A stretch of DNA of 64,000 nucleotides from Thermoplasmatota archaeon. GTDB lineage: Archaea > Thermoplasmatota > JAKEGO01. The position numbers and the translations under genes are program-made. This document shows, piece after piece, positions 2,908-22,034 of the stretch. Within the stretch, counting starts at the first letter, position 1; each line of letters opens with the position of its first letter. The stretch spans positions 8,710 through 72,709 of the forward strand of contig JANQNK010000002.1 in NCBI GenBank assembly GCA_028279595.1. Direction: 5' to 3'. Under the pieces are notes generated by a model, which was given only the letters and a program-made list of their open reading frames with translations, was not told the origin of the DNA and searched no databases.

Positions 2908-3123
2908 ATGATAGAGATTTGTGTATTTCAGATGAATGTGAACGGCATGGATCGAGCTCTTGAATTCTACCGTAAGGTACTAGGTTTCGAGAAAGATGAT
3001 GATACACATTATCCCCAGATCGTTGGCTTGAATTGTCTTCTTCTACCGCACTTTCCAATCTCTCTCCGATATGTGTATCAATCGAGTATAGGCTTTAGGC
3101 ACGTCGGACAATCTTCCATTTAA
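2908..3123 (+). pseudogene. Truncated VOC/glyoxalase-family remnant
   Basis: N-terminus 'VNGMDRALEFYRKVLGFE' matches the VOC start motif; similarity is lost after ~40 codons. Confidence 0.55.
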
Positions 3124-3403
3124 GAGGGGCTTAAGTCAGCCCCAGCAACCTTGAAGAAGATAAAATTGGCAAAGTTGTGAGATGCCTATGTCGAGGAATC
3201 GAATATGCCACTGGTGAATTGAGAAGTATATCGAAACTTGTCCCAATAAAGTGGTGCTAATACGACACTCGTCCCAATACATACTTAAGTTGTCACTTGG
3301 AGGAACTTTAAATGAAAAGCGAGGTGTGAACATGAGAAGATTATCGATGCATTTTGCATTCCTGATCCACTGTTACGTCGCAATGTTCGGAATAGGAAGG
3401 AAG

Positions 3404-4231
3404 GTGAAAGCGAAGACACCATACATGATGCTCGGGTTTATGGTTGCGGGTCTTATGATCGGATCATTTAATGTAACAGCTGAGGGACCGATCCCGGACG
3501 ATGATAATCCAATAGGATATCTCCACCTTGAGAATGAAGAATCAAACTTTGAAGAGAACGAAGAGGCATGGATTAATCAATTGATTTCTGATCCTGAATC
3601 AGTTGGAAGTCAGCATGTCGAAACAACATCTACTAGCCTTGAGTCTAAAGGATATTGGTTCTATGTTCGAGATAGTCCGGATGATGATGTAGATCTAGAT
3701 AATGACTTGTATTTCTGTGAAACCAATTCTACATCGAATTTCACTGTTCATATCGAGTTCGAAAGAGGGGCTCCGGATGAACTTGAATTTAGATTATATA
3801 ATTCTTCACCCCCAGATGTGGAAGTAATCGATGAAGTTATCCTTGGATATAATGAGGAGGGCATCTACAATTCAAGCTGGAATATCTCTGGTAAGAAAAT
3901 AATCCCTGCGGGCAATCGACTTTATTTTATTTTATCATGGTACACACCAGATGCCGGACTTAACTCGTGGACAATTTTTCTCAATAATAAAAGTTATATT
4001 GAATTTCCTATCGCTATCGACTCGAATGATAATGGGATACCAGATTATCTAGAAGATGAACCTGAGCCTCCCGGAGATCCAGATCCGGACCCCGACCCGA
4101 ATGATTCGGACACTGACAATCAGAGACCAACAAGAGACAAGGATGGAAATCTGCTACCAGGATTCGGAATATCTTTATCCATTCTTGCAGTCGTTGTTAC
4201 CGCGTTTCTAATTTCAAAGAATAATGTCTAA
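3404..4231 (+). CDS. Secreted acidic protein with PGF-CTERM-like archaeosortase sorting signal (start uncertain; ORF open from 3251)
   Basis: Hydrophobic signal segment, (DP)n linker, C-terminal 'LPGF'+TM helix+K. Confidence 0.7.
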   Translation: MKAKTPYMMLGFMVAGLMIGSFNVTAEGPIPDDDNPIGYLHLENEESNFEENEEAWINQLISDPESVGSQHVETTSTSLESKGYWFYVRDSPDDDVDLDNDLYFCETNSTSNFTVHIEFERGAPDELEFRLYNSSPPDVEVIDEVILGYNEEGIYNSSWNISGKKIIPAGNRLYFILSWYTPDAGLNSWTIFLNNKSYIEFPIAIDSNDNGIPDYLEDEPEPPGDPDPDPDPNDSDTDNQRPTRDKDGNLLPGFGISLSILAVVVTAFLISKNNV

Positions 4232-5617: not shown

Positions 5618-6340
5618 ATGGCGCAATCGAAGGTCCCAAAATCGGTAGACGAAGTTATCAAGGAAATCGAGTCGTTCGAAAAGGAAGTACAAAAGATCGG
5701 AAGACAAGCTTTCAAACAAGGAGAATATATACAAACGAAAATTCTGATCGAGTCCGCGACCCGAATGAACACATTGAAGAAATCATTCAACGAGCTCGGA
5801 ATGGAACTAAGCGATGTGTTCTCAGACGCGGAAGCTCAACTTAAGAACCTTCCTGCAGGAAAAACTCGTACGTCGACGAAACGTATACCACGCGGAAAGA
5901 AAACTCCGGAGGACGCATATCGAGAACCGATACTCAATGCACTCTCAGAACTCGGTGGGAAAGGAACTACATCAGAGGTCCTCGACAAGGTCTACGAACA
6001 GTTGAAAGACGTCCTAAATCAATTCGATAAACAACCAGTCCCCTCAGTACCTTCACAACAGAGGTGGCGACACACTGCGCAGATCGTCCGAAACAAGATG
6101 ATGAATGAAGGCTTGGTCAAGAAGAACTCGCCTCGCGGTATTTGGGAAATTTCTACCGCCGGGACGAAGACGATCACACCGAATAAGTCCTCAAAGAAAT
6201 CGTCTCAATCGAAGAAGAGCTCATCGTCGAAGAAATCGACGTCCAAACCTAAATCCAAGACCTCTTCCAAGAAGCAGTCGTCTTCGAAGAAGTCCACGAC
6301 TCTGGAAAAGACGGAATCGAAACCTGACGCGAAGAAGTAA
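5618..6340 (+). CDS. Coiled-coil + Mrr-N-like winged-helix protein with Lys/Ser-rich tail
   Basis: 'PILNALSELGG...RW...R..M...GL..NSPRGIWEIS' resembles the Mrr N-terminal wHTH; SSKK-repeat C-terminal tail; no nuclease domain. Confidence 0.75.
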   Translation: MAQSKVPKSVDEVIKEIESFEKEVQKIGRQAFKQGEYIQTKILIESATRMNTLKKSFNELGMELSDVFSDAEAQLKNLPAGKTRTSTKRIPRGKKTPEDAYREPILNALSELGGKGTTSEVLDKVYEQLKDVLNQFDKQPVPSVPSQQRWRHTAQIVRNKMMNEGLVKKNSPRGIWEISTAGTKTITPNKSSKKSSQSKKSSSSKKSTSKPKSKTSSKKQSSSKKSTTLEKTESKPDAKK

Positions 6341-11669: not shown

Positions 11670-12995
11670 CTAGTAGTTATTAACAATCCACTGTTTTAGA
11701 AGTTGTTGTTTTTGTCCAATTTTCCCTTTTGCAATCTCGATATTTATATCATTGGGTAAGGTAGATAATATTGGGTGAATTGCTTTTAAATAGGTACTTC
11801 CTACGTTGATAAATACATCGGAATAGTCTTTGTTCTGCAGTATCTTGTGAAACTGACCTCTTATTTGGTCTATAAAGGTTTCAACATTTTCAAGGGACAA
11901 TTTTTCATCATACGGTGAAATCACCTTCGTTGGTTCAATTAAACCATATTTCGATGAAATAATAAATATATCGAATCCATCTCTATTAGAAAATGACCAA
12001 AGATGTTTCCTTAAAATTTTAAACATGATCCCATCGTATATTTTAATTGCCTGAGCCTTTTTCAATGAGGGATGTTTTGTTTTTGAGCATGAAATAATAA
12101 TCATTTTATTATTGGGGTTCCAATACTGATTCCTTGAAAGGATATTAGCGTTAATATAATCTCTAATTTGATAATATCGCTTTTTTTGAGCTGGGACATT
12201 TCCACGCTTTGGGGACGATCCTTGATATTGAAAAATCCACCCTTTATAGTCACTTCCAAATACAGAGTATCGTCTGAATAAAATATGTCGTTTTGGAGAA
12301 TAGCAACCAAGCGCGAAGAGATTAATATTGGGATAGTTATCACGAATTTCTGAGAGTATTAATCTTAAATTATCCTCATTTCTCACGTTAACGTATCTTA
12401 CACTATTAACTCTTTTTACAAGCATTCCCCCTATTCCGATATATGAATATCCCAATTCAATTAATTCTGAGACACAGTCGATATATTCATTCACTGATTT
12501 TCCTTGGGCGACTCCAAGTAATTTAAATGAATATGAGTTGTCTTGATATTCTTCGATTGCTTTTGTTGCACTTATAAGGGTTTGAGTACGATCCTTTATA
12601 ATATCAATAATTACTCCAAAATCAATTTTCAGCTTTTCGTACTCTTGAAATAAATATGTATAATCTAAATTTGAATATCCTTCTTTCGTAAAAACTGCAG
12701 AGTCGCAAATTGTGAATATTTTCCTTTGAAATTCTAGTCCTGCCCGACATTGATTAATATCAATTTTATAAGGACATGGATTATCTTCAATGATGCTACA
12801 CCGTTGTGGATTGACACATGGGAAAACTTTGAATGCTTCTTTAAAATTCTTATGAGTATTTACATGTGTCATTAATCCAATATGTTTGTTCTCTGGTATC
12901 TTAATTCCACTGATTATTCTTAAGGATGCTTGTCTATCTGCAACTAAGTAAGGAGTGAATTTTTTTACATTGAGATTTGGATTAGTCATAGGCAA
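11670..12995 (-). CDS. tRNA-guanine-transglycosylase-like TIM barrel fused to a DUF6884/YaaA-like domain
   Basis: TGT-like motifs in order: DSAVF, IDII, GVAQG, IGIGG, ALG, GSD; C-terminal 'IISCSKTK...AIKIYDG..F...IISSKYGLI......PYD' motif. Confidence 0.7.
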   Translation of the reverse strand: MPMTNPNLNVKKFTPYLVADRQASLRIISGIKIPENKHIGLMTHVNTHKNFKEAFKVFPCVNPQRCSIIEDNPCPYKIDINQCRAGLEFQRKIFTICDSAVFTKEGYSNLDYTYLFQEYEKLKIDFGVIIDIIKDRTQTLISATKAIEEYQDNSYSFKLLGVAQGKSVNEYIDCVSELIELGYSYIGIGGMLVKRVNSVRYVNVRNEDNLRLILSEIRDNYPNINLFALGCYSPKRHILFRRYSVFGSDYKGWIFQYQGSSPKRGNVPAQKKRYYQIRDYINANILSRNQYWNPNNKMIIISCSKTKHPSLKKAQAIKIYDGIMFKILRKHLWSFSNRDGFDIFIISSKYGLIEPTKVISPYDEKLSLENVETFIDQIRGQFHKILQNKDYSDVFINVGSTYLKAIHPILSTLPNDINIEIAKGKIGQKQQLLKQWIVNNY

Positions 12996-13990
12996 TCATC
13001 TGAAGGAAAATCAAATATAAATGTTTGTCCACAACCTTGAGAATTGTCACGATAACGAGAGGGTAAACAGTAACCTATTTGAATATTATCGTTCTTTCTG
13101 ACTAGTCTATATATCGATAAGATATCTGGTTTTGGTCCAATTGGACTAAACACTAAATTGTAATTATCAATGGAAATATTTTCCTCGTCAGCAAATACAT
13201 CGAGAATACTCTTAAATTCGTTATGAAATTGCCATGGGTGAAAGCCACTTATTTCTTTTGATGTAACAAATTGATTCGCTAATAAGTCTTTATTATTTCG
13301 GTAGACAATGTCTTTTTGATCACTCCAATTTGGAATGCTCGTTACGGGAATTAATGCTAAGGTTCGATATGGTTTATAATTTCGAAAAATTGACATCGCT
13401 CGATTTCCTTGGAAACCAAGGTATATTAACAAGATAGAATCGCGGTGCCTGACCTTTCCATGAAATGTAGGTACAGAAAATATCTTATGGGTTCCCATGA
13501 CAAAATCATTTTCAGCAGAGCTATATTCTCCAACCATTGAATATGTAAAAATGGTTTTATCTAGATCTATAATATCCAATGTTATTAATGCACAATATTT
13601 AGGAATACAAGATAAATCAACGATTAAAGGATATGAGAATGAGCATTCATGAATAACTTGACGAAATTTATGATACTGATACAAGTTTAATGAAATTATT
13701 GAAAATTCGATTCCAAATGAATTCAATAATTGTTGTATTAACCTCTTATTTTGTTGGTATTTTCTAATTGTCTCCTTGTCTTTCACATCAAGTGAAGAGA
13801 TATTTAGTAATGATTGCTGATAATTTGTAAAGTCAATTAACCAACATTCCCTGATTTGATATTGAGTAATAATTGTTCTTATCGAGTGATACGACCGGTC
13901 CGCAAAACTAATAGCACAAATTAAATCAACCATATCATTTTTATATTTATTACTTTCTTGAATTAACTGTCTTGATGGAGTTATTCTCAT
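12986..13990 (-). CDS. Uncharacterised alpha/beta protein, apparently two tandem Rossmann/CARF-like repeats
   Basis: Repeat 1 'CAISFADRS...VDLSCIPK'; repeat 2 'IYLGFQGNRA...FSPIGPK'; overlaps both neighbouring genes. Confidence 0.65.
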   Translation of the reverse strand: MRITPSRQLIQESNKYKNDMVDLICAISFADRSYHSIRTIITQYQIRECWLIDFTNYQQSLLNISSLDVKDKETIRKYQQNKRLIQQLLNSFGIEFSIISLNLYQYHKFRQVIHECSFSYPLIVDLSCIPKYCALITLDIIDLDKTIFTYSMVGEYSSAENDFVMGTHKIFSVPTFHGKVRHRDSILLIYLGFQGNRAMSIFRNYKPYRTLALIPVTSIPNWSDQKDIVYRNNKDLLANQFVTSKEISGFHPWQFHNEFKSILDVFADEENISIDNYNLVFSPIGPKPDILSIYRLVRKNDNIQIGYCLPSRYRDNSQGCGQTFIFDFPSDDCL

Positions 13991-16488
13991 TCATCTCCCC
14001 AATCAAATTCAAAGTCATCTTTCTCAATAACAAGAAATTCTAACCAGTTTTCAAGAAGTGATTTTACAAATGAATCAGTATCATGAAGTATTGTATTGAA
14101 ATGATCGGCGTTTATCTCTCTAGGATGTCGATTTTGAATGGCTAATGAGAAGTATGGGGTTAATAATCTATGGAATTTATAATTCCGATAAGGTGTTTTT
14201 TCTCTTGCATGAAGATTTCGTGGAAATAATGGTTCTTGCAACAGCTGTACTTCGAGAGCTTGTCTTAAATAATCCTCAAGTTCATCTTCGATAGGTGAAC
14301 TCATAGTATTGATGCAAATTTGTGAGGTTCGTCTGATTAAGTCTTTTTCTTTAACATAGTTGAAATCATCATTTGCCATTCGTTTTTTATATCGGTTAAC
14401 GCCAGCTGTTTGGATCCCTTTGAATAACTCACCTAATGCATCAATTAATCTTCTAACGTGTTCCGGATTTTCGATATCTTCATTTGATTGCATATAATGA
14501 AGAACGGACTTGATTTTCACAACATGATTTTGGGCATTACAAGGAATCGGATTGAGTTCCACTTTTTTTTGACTGATATCTGGAAAAGCATAGTACAGCG
14601 TGTCTTTGACAAGCGAAACAAAATCTCGAACGATCCCAGAGGATAAATATGCATAATTTCGAAATCCAGAATAATCCATTCCAATACTTAAGGGTTCTTC
14701 AATTGATTCATAATTTTTACTTGGAAGTAACACCTCAATGTTATTAATGTTGAATTCCTCTTCATCTAAACGTCTATTGGCTACATTTTTTAAAAACGAT
14801 ATGTATTTTTCTCTATCTTTAATCGTGAATCTATCTAAACTTACCGGATAATAATCGTGATATTTCCGGAGAATTTTATTATTTGTATCATGATAACACA
14901 TTGACCCACTTTTAACTCCAATTTTATAATTGAGGTGGAAGTTATATTGTAACGGGGCATTTCGGCTTCTTAGTGTTGTATTAATTACTCTCTGTTGATC
15001 AGTTGATAAATTATCAAACTCATCGAGAAGAATATACACGTTTTGAAATTGTAATATGTTATGAAGTTTCTTTAACGAGTGAAGAAGTACAAGTGGACCA
15101 GTTAACGTTAAATGATCATATTGGCCGGTAGTACACAAATCCATCTCTGAATATAAAAGGTCACAGAGACTATCTAATGAATTAACATTCTCTAAATGAA
15201 AAATCTTACCGATTGAGTGTGCTATTTCGTTTGAATTGTCGAATGACAACTCGTCTTCCATAAGTTCACAAATATGAGTCATTAAAAATAAATTAAAATA
15301 ATGTTGGAAAAACCTTGCCCATTTAATATCGTCCTCGAACTCTTTTTCAGTGGCATAGAAAGCTTCTGGTAAACATTTTATGTAAAATGCCAGATTCTCA
15401 TCACTCTGATTAAGTATTATTGATAAATAACGAAGAAGCCATGACTTGCCTGAACCCCTATGCCCTTCGATAATCGTATTGCTTCCTGGTTCTACCATTC
15501 GAATATAGTCCGTAGGCGGAATAAAATATTTCTTGATAATATCCTCTTCACCTTTTCGAACAATTTCAGAACTAATGTATTTGAAAGGATTTTTATCTTT
15601 CGTGAAACTAGATTCTTTTCTTTCTATAGAGGAATTCGACATTGAAAAACGTTGATACATAATTTGTAAATTCTGAATGAAGTGGTTTGCATCTGAATGA
15701 ACGAATTTAAATCCATACTGTTGAACTAAATCATCCGCCTCTAGCTCTGAATCATCAGAAATTAGATAATTCGTCTTTCCATTGTGTTCACTATGAATCT
15801 CCTTATAAACTATTCGAAAGTTAATGTCTTGAGCACTATAACCGATTAAAACAAGTATTTTCTCTCTAAAAAGTACCCTCAATTTGTCCTTAAATGCTTT
15901 ATTATTTGATTGATTCATCCATTGCTCAAAATCATCTTTCGTTATGACAATTGAAGATGGTTCGATTGTATCACCATGAATTTTATAGATATTAATAGAT
16001 GGATTAGGAGGTTGATGCATTTGGTCTTCCTTGTAATATAATTGGTACTCTGAAGAATCGGTATATGATTTTTCTAGCAAATGATCATAATTTGTTGTTA
16101 TAAAGTCACACGGAGGCAACTCAGTAATCATTTTATGTAATATACTAGTATTTTCTTCTTCCACACTTTCAATTATGTGGGCAATTTTAATCTTTAATTC
16201 CTCATCAGTATAATTGTTTTTGTATAGTTCAATTATCTCTTGAGGATCCCCGCCATTTTCCAGAATTTGTCGAGGTTCTGCAAGGATAGGTTTTTTTTCC
16301 AATTCTTCGGCGAGTATATTCGCTAACTCTCTCAAATCGGGTAATCCAGCACTGGTACTTACTCCAGCACCCAGAATGATGACATAATTTTTATTAGTCA
16401 TAGCCTGAAGTAATGGAGAAATGTCCATATTCGAATTAATGGCTTTTTCGACTCGTTCTTTCACCACGGCACCACTATCTTTGGTCAT
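13987..16488 (-). CDS. SIR2-like NADase domain fused to a P-loop ATPase (ORC/Cdc6-STAND-like)
   Basis: SIR2 motifs GAGVS, TTNYD, KIHG, IGYS..D; Walker A GHRGSGKS; Walker B ILLDEFD; SSGIVR motif; GGTGA RBS. Confidence 0.85.
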   Translation of the reverse strand: MTKDSGAVVKERVEKAINSNMDISPLLQAMTNKNYVIILGAGVSTSAGLPDLRELANILAEELEKKPILAEPRQILENGGDPQEIIELYKNNYTDEELKIKIAHIIESVEEENTSILHKMITELPPCDFITTNYDHLLEKSYTDSSEYQLYYKEDQMHQPPNPSINIYKIHGDTIEPSSIVITKDDFEQWMNQSNNKAFKDKLRVLFREKILVLIGYSAQDINFRIVYKEIHSEHNGKTNYLISDDSELEADDLVQQYGFKFVHSDANHFIQNLQIMYQRFSMSNSSIERKESSFTKDKNPFKYISSEIVRKGEEDIIKKYFIPPTDYIRMVEPGSNTIIEGHRGSGKSWLLRYLSIILNQSDENLAFYIKCLPEAFYATEKEFEDDIKWARFFQHYFNLFLMTHICELMEDELSFDNSNEIAHSIGKIFHLENVNSLDSLCDLLYSEMDLCTTGQYDHLTLTGPLVLLHSLKKLHNILQFQNVYILLDEFDNLSTDQQRVINTTLRSRNAPLQYNFHLNYKIGVKSGSMCYHDTNNKILRKYHDYYPVSLDRFTIKDREKYISFLKNVANRRLDEEEFNINNIEVLLPSKNYESIEEPLSIGMDYSGFRNYAYLSSGIVRDFVSLVKDTLYYAFPDISQKKVELNPIPCNAQNHVVKIKSVLHYMQSNEDIENPEHVRRLIDALGELFKGIQTAGVNRYKKRMANDDFNYVKEKDLIRRTSQICINTMSSPIEDELEDYLRQALEVQLLQEPLFPRNLHAREKTPYRNYKFHRLLTPYFSLAIQNRHPREINADHFNTILHDTDSFVKSLLENWLEFLVIEKDDFEFDWGDE

Positions 16489-16507
16489 GAATTCACCAGG
16501 ACTAAGT

Positions 16508-17503
16508 TTATTTTTCGTAAATTGCCAAAACGTTCATATCAGGTTCAGATTTCATTGTGCCAATTATCCGGATTCCATGTTTATATCCACGTTTAATAAA
16601 ATTGTAGGCAAATACTCCAGTATCGTAATCACCATTCGGACAAACGTGTAAATGTAATGTGTCTCCCGAATTCGTTAAAGGTACACGATAATCAATCCAT
16701 GAAATTCGGCCATTTTCTGATGCAGAATTTTCTACCACTCGAATAGCGTCATCCTCGTTGAAATGATCGTTAAACCATTGCCAATATTCTTTCCTCTTCT
16801 TTCGTACTGAGGCAGTCATATTTCCGGACTCATAGGTTGGAGGTTTACACCGGTGATCAGACGAAAGCAATTTATCATAAAGGAGCTCAATTTTCCCATT
16901 TTCAAACTCACAAGCGGTAGGTATTAATTTTGTCTCAGGAACATCATTTGTTTTCGATTCCGATTGACTTGGTAAATTTAAAAACACCAATGACCTTGGA
17001 ACTGAAATTATACTATTTGGATCTCTCCATTGTTTCTCATCTGTGCCGTTTTCGACGATGAATAATCTTTCAGGATAGCTTGATAAATAATGTAATGATA
17101 AATTTATCAACTGACGATATGGGTTATTTACTGGTTGAAGTCGCACATTATATCCAGATTTTGCGGTTGTTCCTTCACCTACTTCTTTACCTTTCTCAGC
17201 TGAGATGCTTGGTTTAATGAATGTGAATATTCCGCTCAACAGGCTCCCGATTTCAGTTGTCGTTACAGAGCTGGAAAGATTTAATTTTTTTCGTATTTGT
17301 TTAACATTGGATTCGGATAACTGAAACTCATAAAACTCCTGATCAAAATCAGGTCTTACGATGGCATCGTAGAAATTACTGATTTGAGGCTTATCAATAA
17401 AACATGGTGCGTCAGCCATCCAACCCAGAGAGAGTATCTTATTATTGATGAGATCCTTCTTCATTTCATCAATCCCCCTATGTAACCCATATATATGTAT
17501 CAA
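16508..17503 (-). CDS. Uncharacterised protein, first gene of the SIR2-ATPase operon (true start may be a downstream Met)
   Basis: 331-aa ORF ending 19 nt before the next start, same strand, same AT-rich composition. Confidence 0.7.
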   Translation of the reverse strand: MIHIYGLHRGIDEMKKDLINNKILSLGWMADAPCFIDKPQISNFYDAIVRPDFDQEFYEFQLSESNVKQIRKKLNLSSSVTTTEIGSLLSGIFTFIKPSISAEKGKEVGEGTTAKSGYNVRLQPVNNPYRQLINLSLHYLSSYPERLFIVENGTDEKQWRDPNSIISVPRSLVFLNLPSQSESKTNDVPETKLIPTACEFENGKIELLYDKLLSSDHRCKPPTYESGNMTASVRKKRKEYWQWFNDHFNEDDAIRVVENSASENGRISWIDYRVPLTNSGDTLHLHVCPNGDYDTGVFAYNFIKRGYKHGIRIIGTMKSEPDMNVLAIYEK

Positions 17504-17674: not shown

Positions 17675-17860
17675 TGACAGAATCTCTTCTTGAACTAACG
17701 TTTCTTGGAAGTAACAGTTGATGGAATATAGTAAAAACGCTGATCTTGAACGTCCGTCCGTATGTGACAATTCGAAAATGTTAGTAAATACATGTAATTT
17801 CTTTGTATAGTGATTATTATTATATATTATCCACAATCATTCTGTATTTGGGAACAGGTG

Positions 17861-18484
17861 ATGACTTTGGGTAGTACTAAGAATATGTTCGGAGAAGTGA
17901 CATCCTCGGTTGATGAGTTGATGAAAAAAGCGAAAGAGAGCTCGAAACATGCCTTCAAGGTAGGAGATTACAGAGCAACAACAACTCTATCAGAAAATAT
18001 CCAAAGAATGAAGCAGCTCAAGAAAAACATGGCTGAGATCCACAAGGAATTCAATAATATCGAACACTCTGTCACATCAATACAAATAATTGAAAAACCT
18101 AGGACACGTGGTTCAAACCTTCGCGGTAAAGTGACTACCGGAAAGGATTTTATTACCCCAATTCTCAAGTCCATCAATGAACTGGGCGGTTCTGTAAAGA
18201 CAAGTGACGTTCTTAAGAAGGTAAAACAGAAGATGAGTTTTAAACTCAATGAATTTGACAAGCAACCTCTACCATCGAATCCCTCAATGCCACGATGGAA
18301 ACAAACAGCACAATCAATCCGAGTTCAAATGGTAAATGATGGCCTTCTGAAGAAGGATTCTCCAAGAGGTGTCTGGGAGATCTCAGCGCAAGGACGTAAA
18401 GCGATCGAATCCGATCAGAAGAAATCGGTAAAACCGAAATCCAAATCTCAGCTTAAAGGTAACACAAAGGCGAATTCAAAGTAA
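17861..18484 (+). CDS. Second coiled-coil + Mrr-N-like winged-helix protein with basic tail (paralogue of 5618-6340)
   Basis: Shares 'AFK.G.Y', 'PIL....ELGG', 'LN.FDKQP.PS.PS..RW..TAQ..R..M...GL.KK.SPRG.WEIS'. Confidence 0.75.
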   Translation: MTLGSTKNMFGEVTSSVDELMKKAKESSKHAFKVGDYRATTTLSENIQRMKQLKKNMAEIHKEFNNIEHSVTSIQIIEKPRTRGSNLRGKVTTGKDFITPILKSINELGGSVKTSDVLKKVKQKMSFKLNEFDKQPLPSNPSMPRWKQTAQSIRVQMVNDGLLKKDSPRGVWEISAQGRKAIESDQKKSVKPKSKSQLKGNTKANSK

Positions 18485-20402: not shown

Positions 20403-21350
20403 CTAGATTCTTAGTTTAGGGATGTAGGAGAGGTACATTCGACGAAGCTCGGCGGCGTCGATGTGATGGTATATGTCAATTGCCTCTGCACGGCGGTCGC
20501 CTCTAAGCTCCTTGACATGCTCTCTCGGCATTCCGGACCGGATAAGATGCGTCGTGAACCAATGTCGGAGGCAGTGAGGGCCGAAGTGATCCTCAAATTT
20601 GTCGGAGTCGGGATTGTGGAAACCGAGCTTAATTGCCGGATTAACGATGGCTTTCCATGCCGCGTTTCGGGAGAGTCGTGATCCTGTCTGGTAACTCACG
20701 AAGAGAGCATCGGTGGTAGTCCCGAGTTTATCACGGACTCTCATCCACCGTTGGAGTGCCCTCGAAGCCTCGTCGTCGAAGAAGACTCGCCGGTTGGACC
20801 GCTTCGGGGTGGGTTTGAGCATAGCGGATCCTTCGGTCCAATTGATATCGCTGACGTCGAGCTTGAGCATCTCACCTCGTCGTATACCGGTCTTCGCGAG
20901 GAGCAGTATCATCGCCTTGTCACGGGGATCCATTACGGCACTCACGAGAGCGGAGAGCTGTTCAACTGACAGTAACTGACGTGTCGATTGCTCATGGCCG
21001 TTCTTATAGCGCTTCAAATAGCGCTTTCGGAACGGAAGAACGAGGTTATTGTCGACATACTCCTCGAACATGAGGTAATCGTAGAACGACGAGAGGACCG
21101 AGAAGTAGTTCTCAAGTGTCTTGAACTTGACCTTACGCTCCTCCATAAGGTAAGATAGGAAATCTCGGAGAGTGTCCATACTAAGGTCCAACGGAGAAAT
21201 TTCGTGACGATTGAGGTATTGAATGAAAATGTTCAGACTCGTTTGATAGTGGCGGATCGATTCCATGGTCATATTCTGCAACTTGCAGTCTTCGATGTAT
21301 GCCTCTAGCAGGGCATCAGGATCCATTTTCTTGCCCTTCTTCTTTGCCAT
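20403..21350 (-). CDS. Tyrosine recombinase/integrase
   Basis: TGIRRGE, HCLRH, LRGD, IDIY catalytic-box motifs; N-terminal core-binding region; start coupled to upstream gene by TGATG overlap. Confidence 0.92.
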   Translation of the reverse strand: MAKKKGKKMDPDALLEAYIEDCKLQNMTMESIRHYQTSLNIFIQYLNRHEISPLDLSMDTLRDFLSYLMEERKVKFKTLENYFSVLSSFYDYLMFEEYVDNNLVLPFRKRYLKRYKNGHEQSTRQLLSVEQLSALVSAVMDPRDKAMILLLAKTGIRRGEMLKLDVSDINWTEGSAMLKPTPKRSNRRVFFDDEASRALQRWMRVRDKLGTTTDALFVSYQTGSRLSRNAAWKAIVNPAIKLGFHNPDSDKFEDHFGPHCLRHWFTTHLIRSGMPREHVKELRGDRRAEAIDIYHHIDAAELRRMYLSYIPKLRI

Positions 21351-21895
21351 CACGAACCCCTCCAACGCCATTTCTTGCCGAGACATTCAACGACACCTAT
21401 CTGTTCTAGCATCTCTAGCTGGATCGAGATCGCATTAATGAAATCCGATTGTGTTGACTTTATACCAAGCTTCCGCAGGATGTCGCCTTGAGTAAGAGGT
21501 TTGGTTGACGACCTGAGTATCTCTATTAGTTCCGGATCGAATGGCCTCGGTCCCTCGAAGTCATTGTCGAGGAATGGTGCAGAGCGATAACGTTTCAACT
21601 CGGTGTCGAGAGAATCACTGAGATTGCGTAGCATACGATTCTCTTGTTCAAGTTCCTTGACCATCTCGTCCCTGATCTGAATCTGTTCAAGTAGTTCGAG
21701 CCGAGAAGGTCCTTGGTCCTCATCAACCTCGGTATTGAGTGAGTCAATCACGCGTTGAATGATGAACTTCGAGATAGACATGTTCTCGTTAGTGGCACGA
21801 GCCTTCCACTCTTCTGCTAACTCGACTGATGGTAAATACACATACAAGGCACGTTGTTTTATTGTCTCAGTCTTCCCTTTATTTGGTTTCCCCAT
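21350..21895 (-). CDS. Integrase-associated DNA-binding protein (RHH-like N-terminus, coiled coil, wHTH-like C-terminus)
   Basis: 'RALYVYLPS.....W...A....MSISKFI' RHH pattern; central coiled coil; terminal 'LEMLEQIGVVE...KKWRW'. Confidence 0.7.
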   Translation of the reverse strand: MGKPNKGKTETIKQRALYVYLPSVELAEEWKARATNENMSISKFIIQRVIDSLNTEVDEDQGPSRLELLEQIQIRDEMVKELEQENRMLRNLSDSLDTELKRYRSAPFLDNDFEGPRPFDPELIEILRSSTKPLTQGDILRKLGIKSTQSDFINAISIQLEMLEQIGVVECLGKKWRWRGS

Positions 21896-21946: not shown

Positions 21947-22034
21947 TGGTGCGGGGGAAGGGATTTGAACCCTCGGACTCCTTCGAGAACAGATCTTGAG
22001 TCTGCCGCCTTTGGCCAGGCTGGGCTACCCCCGC
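21947..22034 (-). tRNA. tRNA-Leu(CAA) with encoded CCA
   Basis: GCGGGGG acceptor stem, anticodon loop CT-CAA-GA, long variable arm, GGTTCAAATCC T arm, ACCA end. Confidence 0.95.

Follow-up and report, generated by a model that had tools for sequence, protein, structure and literature searches.

The element described here is a four-gene operon within a 64,000-nucleotide stretch of DNA from a Thermoplasmatota archaeon (contig JANQNK010000002.1, positions 8,710 to 72,709, of assembly GCA_028279595.1), and this whole stretch is what we refer to as the window. The operon combines a putative fusion of a DpdA-like transglycosylase with a DpdC-type domain, a SIR2-ATPase, a CARF6-family protein with tandem CARF domains and a further conserved protein, and the coupling of such transglycosylases with the SIR2-ATPase/CARF6 pair recurs in other archaeal and bacterial loci. 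With about even confidence, we read the operon as a DpdB-less, Dpd-like DNA-marking defence locus that has, as an abortive back-up, an arm of the NAD-degrading (NADase) type. The four genes, all on the minus strand, are as follows.

Gene 1, 16508..17464 (-), a conserved protein of 318 amino acids (aa), DUF6414-like by language-model features, which is a lead only
Gene 2, 13987..16488 (-), an 833-aa fusion of SIR2 with an ORC-CDC6-like AAA+ ATPase
Gene 3, 12986..13990 (-), a 334-aa CARF6-family protein with two CARF domains in tandem
Gene 4, 11670..12989 (-), a 439-aa protein best read as a DpdA-like transglycosylase barrel fused to a DpdC-type DUF6884 domain

The tRNA-guanine transglycosylase (TGT) motifs that had been predicted for gene 4 are borne out, and the catalytic aspartates of its barrel (residues ~1-290), D96, D129 and D247, are invariant in 83 sequences. 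DpdA (7UI4) is the only significant profile match of the barrel in the PDB (E 1.4e-7), its top Foldseek match (2.2e-10) and its best VIA-align match (Z 19.0, root-mean-square deviation 3.5, 239 aligned), the runners-up being archaeal TGT (Z 17.8), bacterial TGT (17.5) and Cap10 (14.6); the barrel is thus nearer to DpdA than to the tRNA enzymes or Cap10. In the alignment with DpdA, residues D96, F100 and D129 of gene 4 correspond to D95, F99 and D130, the position of D247 makes it the likely nucleophile and counterpart of DpdA D256, and Gln162 occupies the site of DpdA His181, as in tRNA enzymes. The C-terminal DUF6884 domain (~297-433) matches PF21818 (E 3.4e-17), PF03883 (E 5.3e-7) and, weakly, the PADLOC model of DpdC, aligns with DpdC from a dpdABC locus (HHalign E 1.5e-5), and has a CxxxK motif together with an SxxxG version of LSAxxG, its residues C301, K305, S345 and G349 being invariant. 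It is also matched by the PADLOC model PDC-M57A (E 8.7e-14), while the other PDC-M57 models match none of the four operon proteins. Since DUF6884 is a Pfam domain present in DpdC (PMC11888242), and since DpdC is a member of PF03883, which the gene 4 domain matches too, a DpdA-DpdC fusion is the best reading of gene 4. The original prediction that the operon lacks both DpdB and DpdC was therefore wrong for DpdC, and it stands for DpdB, which is absent from the operon and was not found in the host genome, whose 86% completeness bears on this and all other genome-wide absences reported here. The suggestion that the host could supply preQ0 has gained ground, as the genome encodes QueC and QueD, and a separate TGT away from the operon, so that host-made preQ0 is a plausible substrate for gene 4.

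These matches also bear on two other ways to interpret gene 4. It could be a second tRNA-modification or DNA-repair enzyme, joining a TGT to a lesion-binding domain of the YaaA/YfjM kind and having nothing to do with its neighbours, given that DUF6884 is related to YaaA and that YfjM binds DNA lesions (PMC11701544). The host already encodes its TGT elsewhere, the gene is patchily distributed and belongs to a foreign island, and what adjoins it in the various loci are nuclease, helicase and ATPase genes, all of which leaves this interpretation very improbable. Less remote, though still improbable, is a role as a toxin regulator resembling Cap10 of type IV cyclic-oligonucleotide-based antiphage signalling (CBASS) or the putative TIM-B antitoxins, in which the barrel would modify or bind a protein, or make a small inhibitor, and so restrain SIR2 up to the time of infection. 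TGT-fold proteins do act in this manner in type IV CBASS (PMC13376578), and TIM-B barrels have been proposed to restrain effectors, a sirtuin included (10.64898/2026.10.19.760177); against this stand the weaker fold match to Cap10 than to DpdA, the lack of a Cap9-like QueC or a CD-NTase in the operon, the absence of a conserved N-terminal glycine from the families of genes 1, 3 and 4, and the DpdC-type domain, which points to a DNA substrate.

Gene 2 matches PF13289 (SIR2_2, E 1.4e-26) and PF24389 (ORC-CDC6-like ATPase, E 1.5e-45) in Pfam. The SIR2 and Walker motifs reported for it are present, namely GAGVS at 40, TTNYD at 131 and KIHGD at 169 in the SIR2 part and, in the ATPase, the Walker A sequence GHRGSGKS at 342, whose P-loop includes an arginine, and the Walker B sequence LLDEFD at 487, and all are conserved in 9 homologues. 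The SIR2 domain is of the ThsA-like NADase type and has ThsA and KomC as its PDB matches; the ThsA models cover residues 23-275 only, and gene 2 contains no TPR or LRR sensor repeats. The duplicated Rossmann unit proposed for gene 3 was confirmed by alignment of its halves with each other (HHalign probability 94%, E 1.3e-7), and five of the CARF6 models in PADLOC match gene 3, the best of them at E 4.1e-21; the family comprises 1998 clusters at 50% identity. A structural model of the two proteins in complex supports the prediction that CARF6 binds the ATPase domain of gene 2: it scores 0.65, compared to 0.00 for the best of three controls, the mark adopted for this score being one that 58 of the 80 solved complexes attain, as do 2 of the 110 mismatched pairs, with the caveat that one of the three runs scored 0.00 and that the runs share at least 0% of contacts. 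The partners have a pLDDT of at least 79 in the complex, and the predicted interface involves residues 370-383 of the ATPase and 170-185 of CARF6. Pairwise distances of CARF6 and ATPase correlate as well (rho 0.78, n=12).

The original prediction had named the absence of this TGT from ATPase/CARF pairs elsewhere as a finding that would speak against it, and the two do co-occur in other loci, including one from a cultured archaeon. Our census of gene 4 relatives covered 80 metagenome loci, of which 52 had sufficient upstream DNA. A NurA-like gene and HerA accompany the TGT in 40 of these 52, and the SIR2-ATPase/CARF6 pair in 8, all of them among the 40 with NurA-HerA; in 6 loci the TGT is accompanied by a PLD protein and a DpdJ-like helicase, and in 5 by another unknown gene. 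The four genes are consequently not upheld as a single fixed system, the TGT being usually found with NurA-HerA and the pair being an optional addition. When loci are anchored on CARF6 instead, a gene 4-type TGT is adjacent in six of seven informative cases (L123, L131, L133, L134, L136 and L137, the exception being L129), and stop and start codons often overlap between TGT and neighbours. The anchored loci were hand-picked with a profile built on TGT-linked members, and from a quick CARF6 tree used solely for choosing them, so that the figure holds for this subclade only; L135 ends too soon to count.

Several individual loci illustrate how these parts are assembled. In Methanolobus tindarius DSM 2278 (AZAJ01000001.1, L138:6387-14808), genes for a NurA-like protein, HerA and TGT-DUF6884 converge on those for SIR2-ATPase and CARF6; the fusion in this organism is annotated merely as a DUF6884 or DUF328 protein. 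The order in L137 is QueD, DUF6884, NurA, HerA, SIR2-ATPase, CARF6, TGT and QueC, and precursor supply in relatives is represented by QueD and QueC in this locus and by Vut_1 in L003, L099, L103, L104 and L108. All four parts are present in L021, a Bryobacteraceae locus that reads DUF6884, gene 1, SIR2-ATPase, CARF6 and TGT and is without NurA-HerA; the four parts are ordered as in our operon. More distant CARF6 relatives occur in genomes of the host's own phylum as operons (L127:9460-15461 and L128:1173-5999) with a kinase-ATPase and a DNA methyltransferase in place of SIR2 and TGT, the first of them with an LmuA-like nuclease too. That these two distant pairs adjoin DNA methyltransferases fits a view of CARF6/ATPase as a module that accompanies DNA-modification systems.

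Other arrangements in the census are recorded here in their own right. In L084, L093, L101, L102, L105 and L106, TGT-DUF6884 has three other partners in place of NurA-HerA, namely a helicase resembling DpdJ, a protein with a PLD domain and an unknown one of 394 aa. An unknown protein of ~990 aa with no match in Pfam or PADLOC precedes the TGT in L071, L088, L097, L107, L109, L111 and L121, often itself located after a DEAD/MrfA-type helicase. L131 has an operon of ATPase, CARF6 and TGT, in which the last part of the TGT gene is overlapped by one for thymidylate synthase (2966-3760).

In the mechanism that we favour, the DpdA-like barrel would exchange guanine in host DNA for host-made preQ0, which the fused DpdC-type domain would then turn into the amide, 7-amido-7-deazaguanine (ADG). 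That gene 4 marks DNA is suggested by its fold, its invariant catalytic aspartates and its gene context, the last of which favours marking over the sensing of modified bases. Phage DpdA seems to act alone (PMC6884629), and the writer without DpdB might do likewise, or might be aided by the ORC-CDC6-like ATPase, by analogy with the BREX-Related Capture (BRC) systems, for which an ATPase has been proposed as the DpdB substitute (PMC12839542). CARF6 would bind the ORC-CDC6-like ATPase, and upon infection, or when marking is blocked or overwhelmed, the ATPase-CARF6 complex would turn on SIR2, with destruction of NAD+ and arrest of the cell, a switch that we propose by analogy with related SIR2 systems. 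Gene 1 would serve as a nucleic-acid-binding accessory. Restriction in most relatives would fall to NurA-HerA, whether or not a SIR2 module is present as well, and in the present copy the SIR2 arm and gene 1 alone accompany the putative writer.

A number of observations weigh against this mechanism. Gene 4 scores 38.7 bits with the curated DpdA model of NCBIfam (NF041059), for which the cut-off is 200, and the DpdA of Salmonella requires the DpdB ATPase (PMC10164549). NurA-HerA is missing from this operon, and the HerA of the clade was not found in the host genome; genes 1 and 2 are interrupted in L021, the sole other four-part locus. The SIR2-ATPase/CARF6 pair is an optional module of TGT loci, with near-identical TGTs found with and without it (L094/L096 versus L100, and L066 versus L067), and the distances of TGT and CARF6 are only moderately correlated (rho 0.48), to an extent that kinship alone could yield. 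Finally, neither Cas10 nor SMODS, the synthases of cyclic oligonucleotides, was found in the host genome, which leaves no such source of a CARF ligand, and the ligand of CARF6, if there is one, is therefore probably something other than a CRISPR or CBASS messenger.

Some of the same observations would be expected if two independent modules merely shared defence islands, the two genes of the SIR2-ATPase/CARF6 pair being self-sufficient for an abortive response, and gene 4 being a marker orphaned when NurA-HerA was lost. We consider this unlikely, though less so than any other alternative discussed here. The pair is scattered on the TGT tree (10 changes, a count inflated by short contigs), its orientation relative to the TGT varies, TGT-free distant CARF6 pairs exist, and the close CARF6 relative in L129 has no TGT in the 2 kb downstream. 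Losses of NurA-HerA do happen, as seen from L134:4796-5053, where an 85-codon ORF (open reading frame) that begins as the NurA-like gene and finishes as HerA forms a deletion scar between DUF6884 and TGT. An accidental association is harder to reconcile with the fact that CARF6 is adjoined in six of the seven informative loci by one specific and rare TGT clade, of which a single genome among 401 from the phylum has a full-length member, often with overlapping codons, or with the intact state of the operon genes, which show no excess loss of conserved residues.

Unlikely, too, is a closer coupling than the favoured mechanism provides for, in which deazaguanine chemistry would gate the NADase directly and no restriction nuclease would be involved. 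The state or product of gene 4, be it modified DNA, a released base or an abasic intermediate, would then be read by gene 1 and CARF6, with CARF6 in control of the ATPase and SIR2. If this were true, it would provide a first ligand for CARF6 and an example of DNA marking enforced by cell suicide alone.

We are more doubtful that gene 4 is a sensor rather than a writer, i.e., that the barrel recognizes or excises a viral deazaguanine, or uses a viral base, and yields a free base, an abasic site or a covalent adduct that activates CARF6-ATPase-SIR2 in a manner akin to Kongming or type IV restriction. TGT chemistry is reversible and CARF domains bind nucleotide ligands. No conventional cyclase was found in the genome, the SIR2 domain resembles those of KomC and ThsA, and viruses, archaeal ones included, contain 7-deazaguanines (PMC6884629). 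A reader has no need of the preQ0 synthesis or import genes that relatives possess and that a writer requires; moreover, the DpdC-type domain is always kept, fused or adjacent, and most relatives are without a SIR2 module to which a sensor could signal.

Gene 1 belongs to a conserved family (381 homologues at ~45-55% identity) that none of its 113 members tested links to the Pfam DUF6414 or PADLOC Dodola models (0/113 matches). In the ESM Atlas it comes at 0.97 to clusters of DUF6414, the family of DolA of Dodola, with a low recognition value, and its resemblance to DUF6414 by language-model features is for now a lead only. Its structure model (pLDDT 88.7) has oligonucleotide/oligosaccharide-binding (OB) folds as best VIA-align matches, at Z 4.3 or less, which hints weakly at an OB-fold-like core; Foldseek gave no match with the model and the Atlas structure search gave TM values of 0.31 or less by query, and these blanks do not amount to a demonstration of a new fold. 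A NurA-like nuclease was considered and rejected, as there is no such fold match. Among 40 gene 1 loci (a non-dereplicated set, in which genes were labelled by profiles derived from the loci themselves, each profile taking its name from a single Pfam scan), 28 contain deazaguanine-related genes and 23 have TGT/DpdA within 10 kb. Among the locus types are classic dpdABC accompanied by que genes, DUF6884-TGT accompanied by UvrD and a PD-(D/E)XK nuclease, NurA-HerA-TGT, and Qng1-like loci, and the most likely role of gene 1 is to bind nucleic acids as an accessory in deazaguanine systems, a suggestion for which the support is weak. Two of these types deserve separate mention. In L010, L012, L015, L016, L019 and L034, a gene 1 homologue belongs to a four-gene unit whose other members are a UvrD helicase, a PD-(D/E)XK nuclease and a fusion in which the domains are reversed, DUF6884-TGT. 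In L017, L027, L028, L032 and L038, the homologues adjoin Qng1-like (Q_salvage) genes, and three of these loci are without TGT in the fetched DNA.

The surroundings of the operon are those of an acquired island. Its 5.8-kb block, already described as AT-rich, has the lowest G+C content (GC, 33%) among 2187 equal windows of a 57%-GC genome, GC at third codon positions (GC3) is 0.26-0.27 as compared to a genome median of 0.78, and the block is foreign and horizontally acquired. The four co-oriented ORFs are on the minus strand at 16508-17503, 13987-16488, 12986-13990 and 11670-12995, just as first reported, and the 19-nt gap between genes 1 and 2 and the 4-nt overlap between genes 2 and 3 are correct. 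The 10-nt overlap given for the last junction needs revision, since gene 4 more likely starts at ATG 12989 (439 aa) and therefore overlaps gene 3 by a 4-nt ATGA; after this correction the junctions are a 19-nt gap followed by two 4-nt ATGA overlaps. For gene 1, ATG 17464 is a more likely start than position 17503, because a purine-rich sequence is located just upstream and the database gene call is also of 318 aa. This site and the features at the right edge of the low-GC island, to the left of which the operon is situated, are as follows.

17473..17479 (-), AGGGGGA, a purine-rich ribosome-binding-like site by sequence, ahead of ATG 17464
20403-21386 (-), a tyrosine integrase
21350-21895 (-), a small gene overlapping the integrase
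21947-22034 (-), tRNA-Leu(CAA), beside the integrase

No second copy of the attachment (att) site was found on the contig, so the other end of the island is probably off-contig or eroded. The distribution of the genes is sparse: gene 1 was not seen at close range in any of 30 relatives, full-length gene 4 is absent from the 400 other genomes of the phylum, and CARF6 is represented in 2 of those 400 by distant members only. No plasmid relatives of genes 1 or 3 and no phage relatives of the gene 4 barrel were found. In a scan for sigma-70 promoters, a kind of scan ill suited to an archaeon, sites were rarer than in shuffles. Elsewhere the host genome encodes PGF-CTERM proteins, a long TGT and a housekeeping NurA, which point to an archaeal host. 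A segment made up of the operon and a gene for a 1374-aa surface protein is flanked by two paralogous proteins (5618-6340 (+) and 17810-18484 (+)) that have an Mrr N-terminal winged-helix domain, basic tails and no nuclease domain. The tRNA-Leu GAG and CAA genes are ~89% identical over 243 bases (G000:C1:11522-11761 versus G000:C5:30504-30744), a similarity that extends ~150 bases past the tRNA 3' end, and a short ORF with an HNH-like motif, EIDHI (G000:C5:403-750), is found to the left of the window, in a further region of low GC close to where the contig ends.

What appears to be new is the recurrent coupling of DpdA-NurA-HerA-type loci with the SIR2-ATPase/CARF6 pair, along with the nuclease-free form, gene 1 as a second family tied to deazaguanine loci, and a cultured organism for tests. 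If the favoured mechanism is true, 7-deazaguanine marking of DNA extends, in archaea and bacteria, to a compact DpdB-less form with fused DpdA and DpdC, and the killing arm of marking systems is swappable among NurA-HerA, helicase-PLD and SIR2 NADase types. It becomes testable what CRISPR-independent CARF6 proteins sense and whether archaea place deazaguanine in chromosomal DNA via this clade, the marking step being accessible in cultured M. tindarius DSM 2278.

The combination had been put forward as one without a name, and PADLOC and NCBIfam indeed give domain-level matches only, with no match to a named system; the literature searched, which consisted mostly of open papers, contains no description of it, so that an earlier description elsewhere is possible. 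The likeness to Dpd (dpdA-K of Salmonella Montevideo, PMC10164549) lies in a DpdA-like transglycosylase with catalytic aspartates, a DpdC-type domain, a probable reliance on host preQ0 and a location in a genomic island. Unlike in Dpd, the DpdA and DpdC parts are fused here, the barrel is shorter and has a four-cysteine insertion (C58, C64, C72 and C81), DpdB and DpdD-K are absent (no PADLOC match to DpdD-K among the operon or flanking proteins), and the partners are SIR2-ATPase/CARF6, or NurA-HerA in most relatives. By analogy the operon would resemble Dpd in its working, but DpdB, DpdD-K and the DpdA cut-off place it outside Dpd. BRC (PMC12839542) shares a DpdB-less TGT beside ORC/Cdc6-type and STAND ATPases and HerA, with DNA marking predicted; it differs in having PglZ, DUF6079, DUF4007 and GNAT and in lacking DpdC, SIR2 and CARF6, and neither PglZ, DUF6079, DUF4007 nor HerA is encoded in our operon.

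With the SIR2 NADase systems (ThsA, KomC, DSR2 and SIR2-HerA), the operon has in common an NADase-type SIR2 with intact Asn and His motifs, a match limited to the SIR2 domain, as there is no SLOG, TIR, HerA partner of this sort, Argonaute or TPR sensor. Thoeris would require a TIR (ThsB) protein, and none is encoded among the four genes or flanks; in SIR2-HerA (Nezha) the partner is HerA, whereas here SIR2 is fused to an AAA+ ATPase in an operon without it. Dodola pairs DolA (DUF6414) with the ClpB-like DolB, and gene 1 likewise lies ahead of an ATPase gene and has DUF6414-like language-model features, but it has no hidden Markov model match to DUF6414 or PADLOC Dodola and the ATPase is ORC-CDC6-like rather than ClpB-like. 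In type IV CBASS (Cap9, Cap10) and TIM-B, too, a defence operon encodes both a suicide effector and a protein of the TGT fold; this operon, in contrast, has no CD-NTase or Cap9, no SMODS was found in the genome, and the barrel is nearer to DpdA and is joined to a DpdC-type domain. The closest correspondence for genes 2 and 3 is with the CARF6/ORC-CDC6-like ATPase loci (PADLOC CARF6, PF24389, and the kinase-AAA-CARF of PMC4012209), in which a tandem CARF protein adjoins an AAA+ ATPase that has the P-loop arginine and an N-terminal effector domain. The effector is SIR2 here and not a kinase, and the neighbour is a DpdA-like gene and not a methyltransferase; judged by their profile matches, genes 2 and 3 are members of this computationally defined class.

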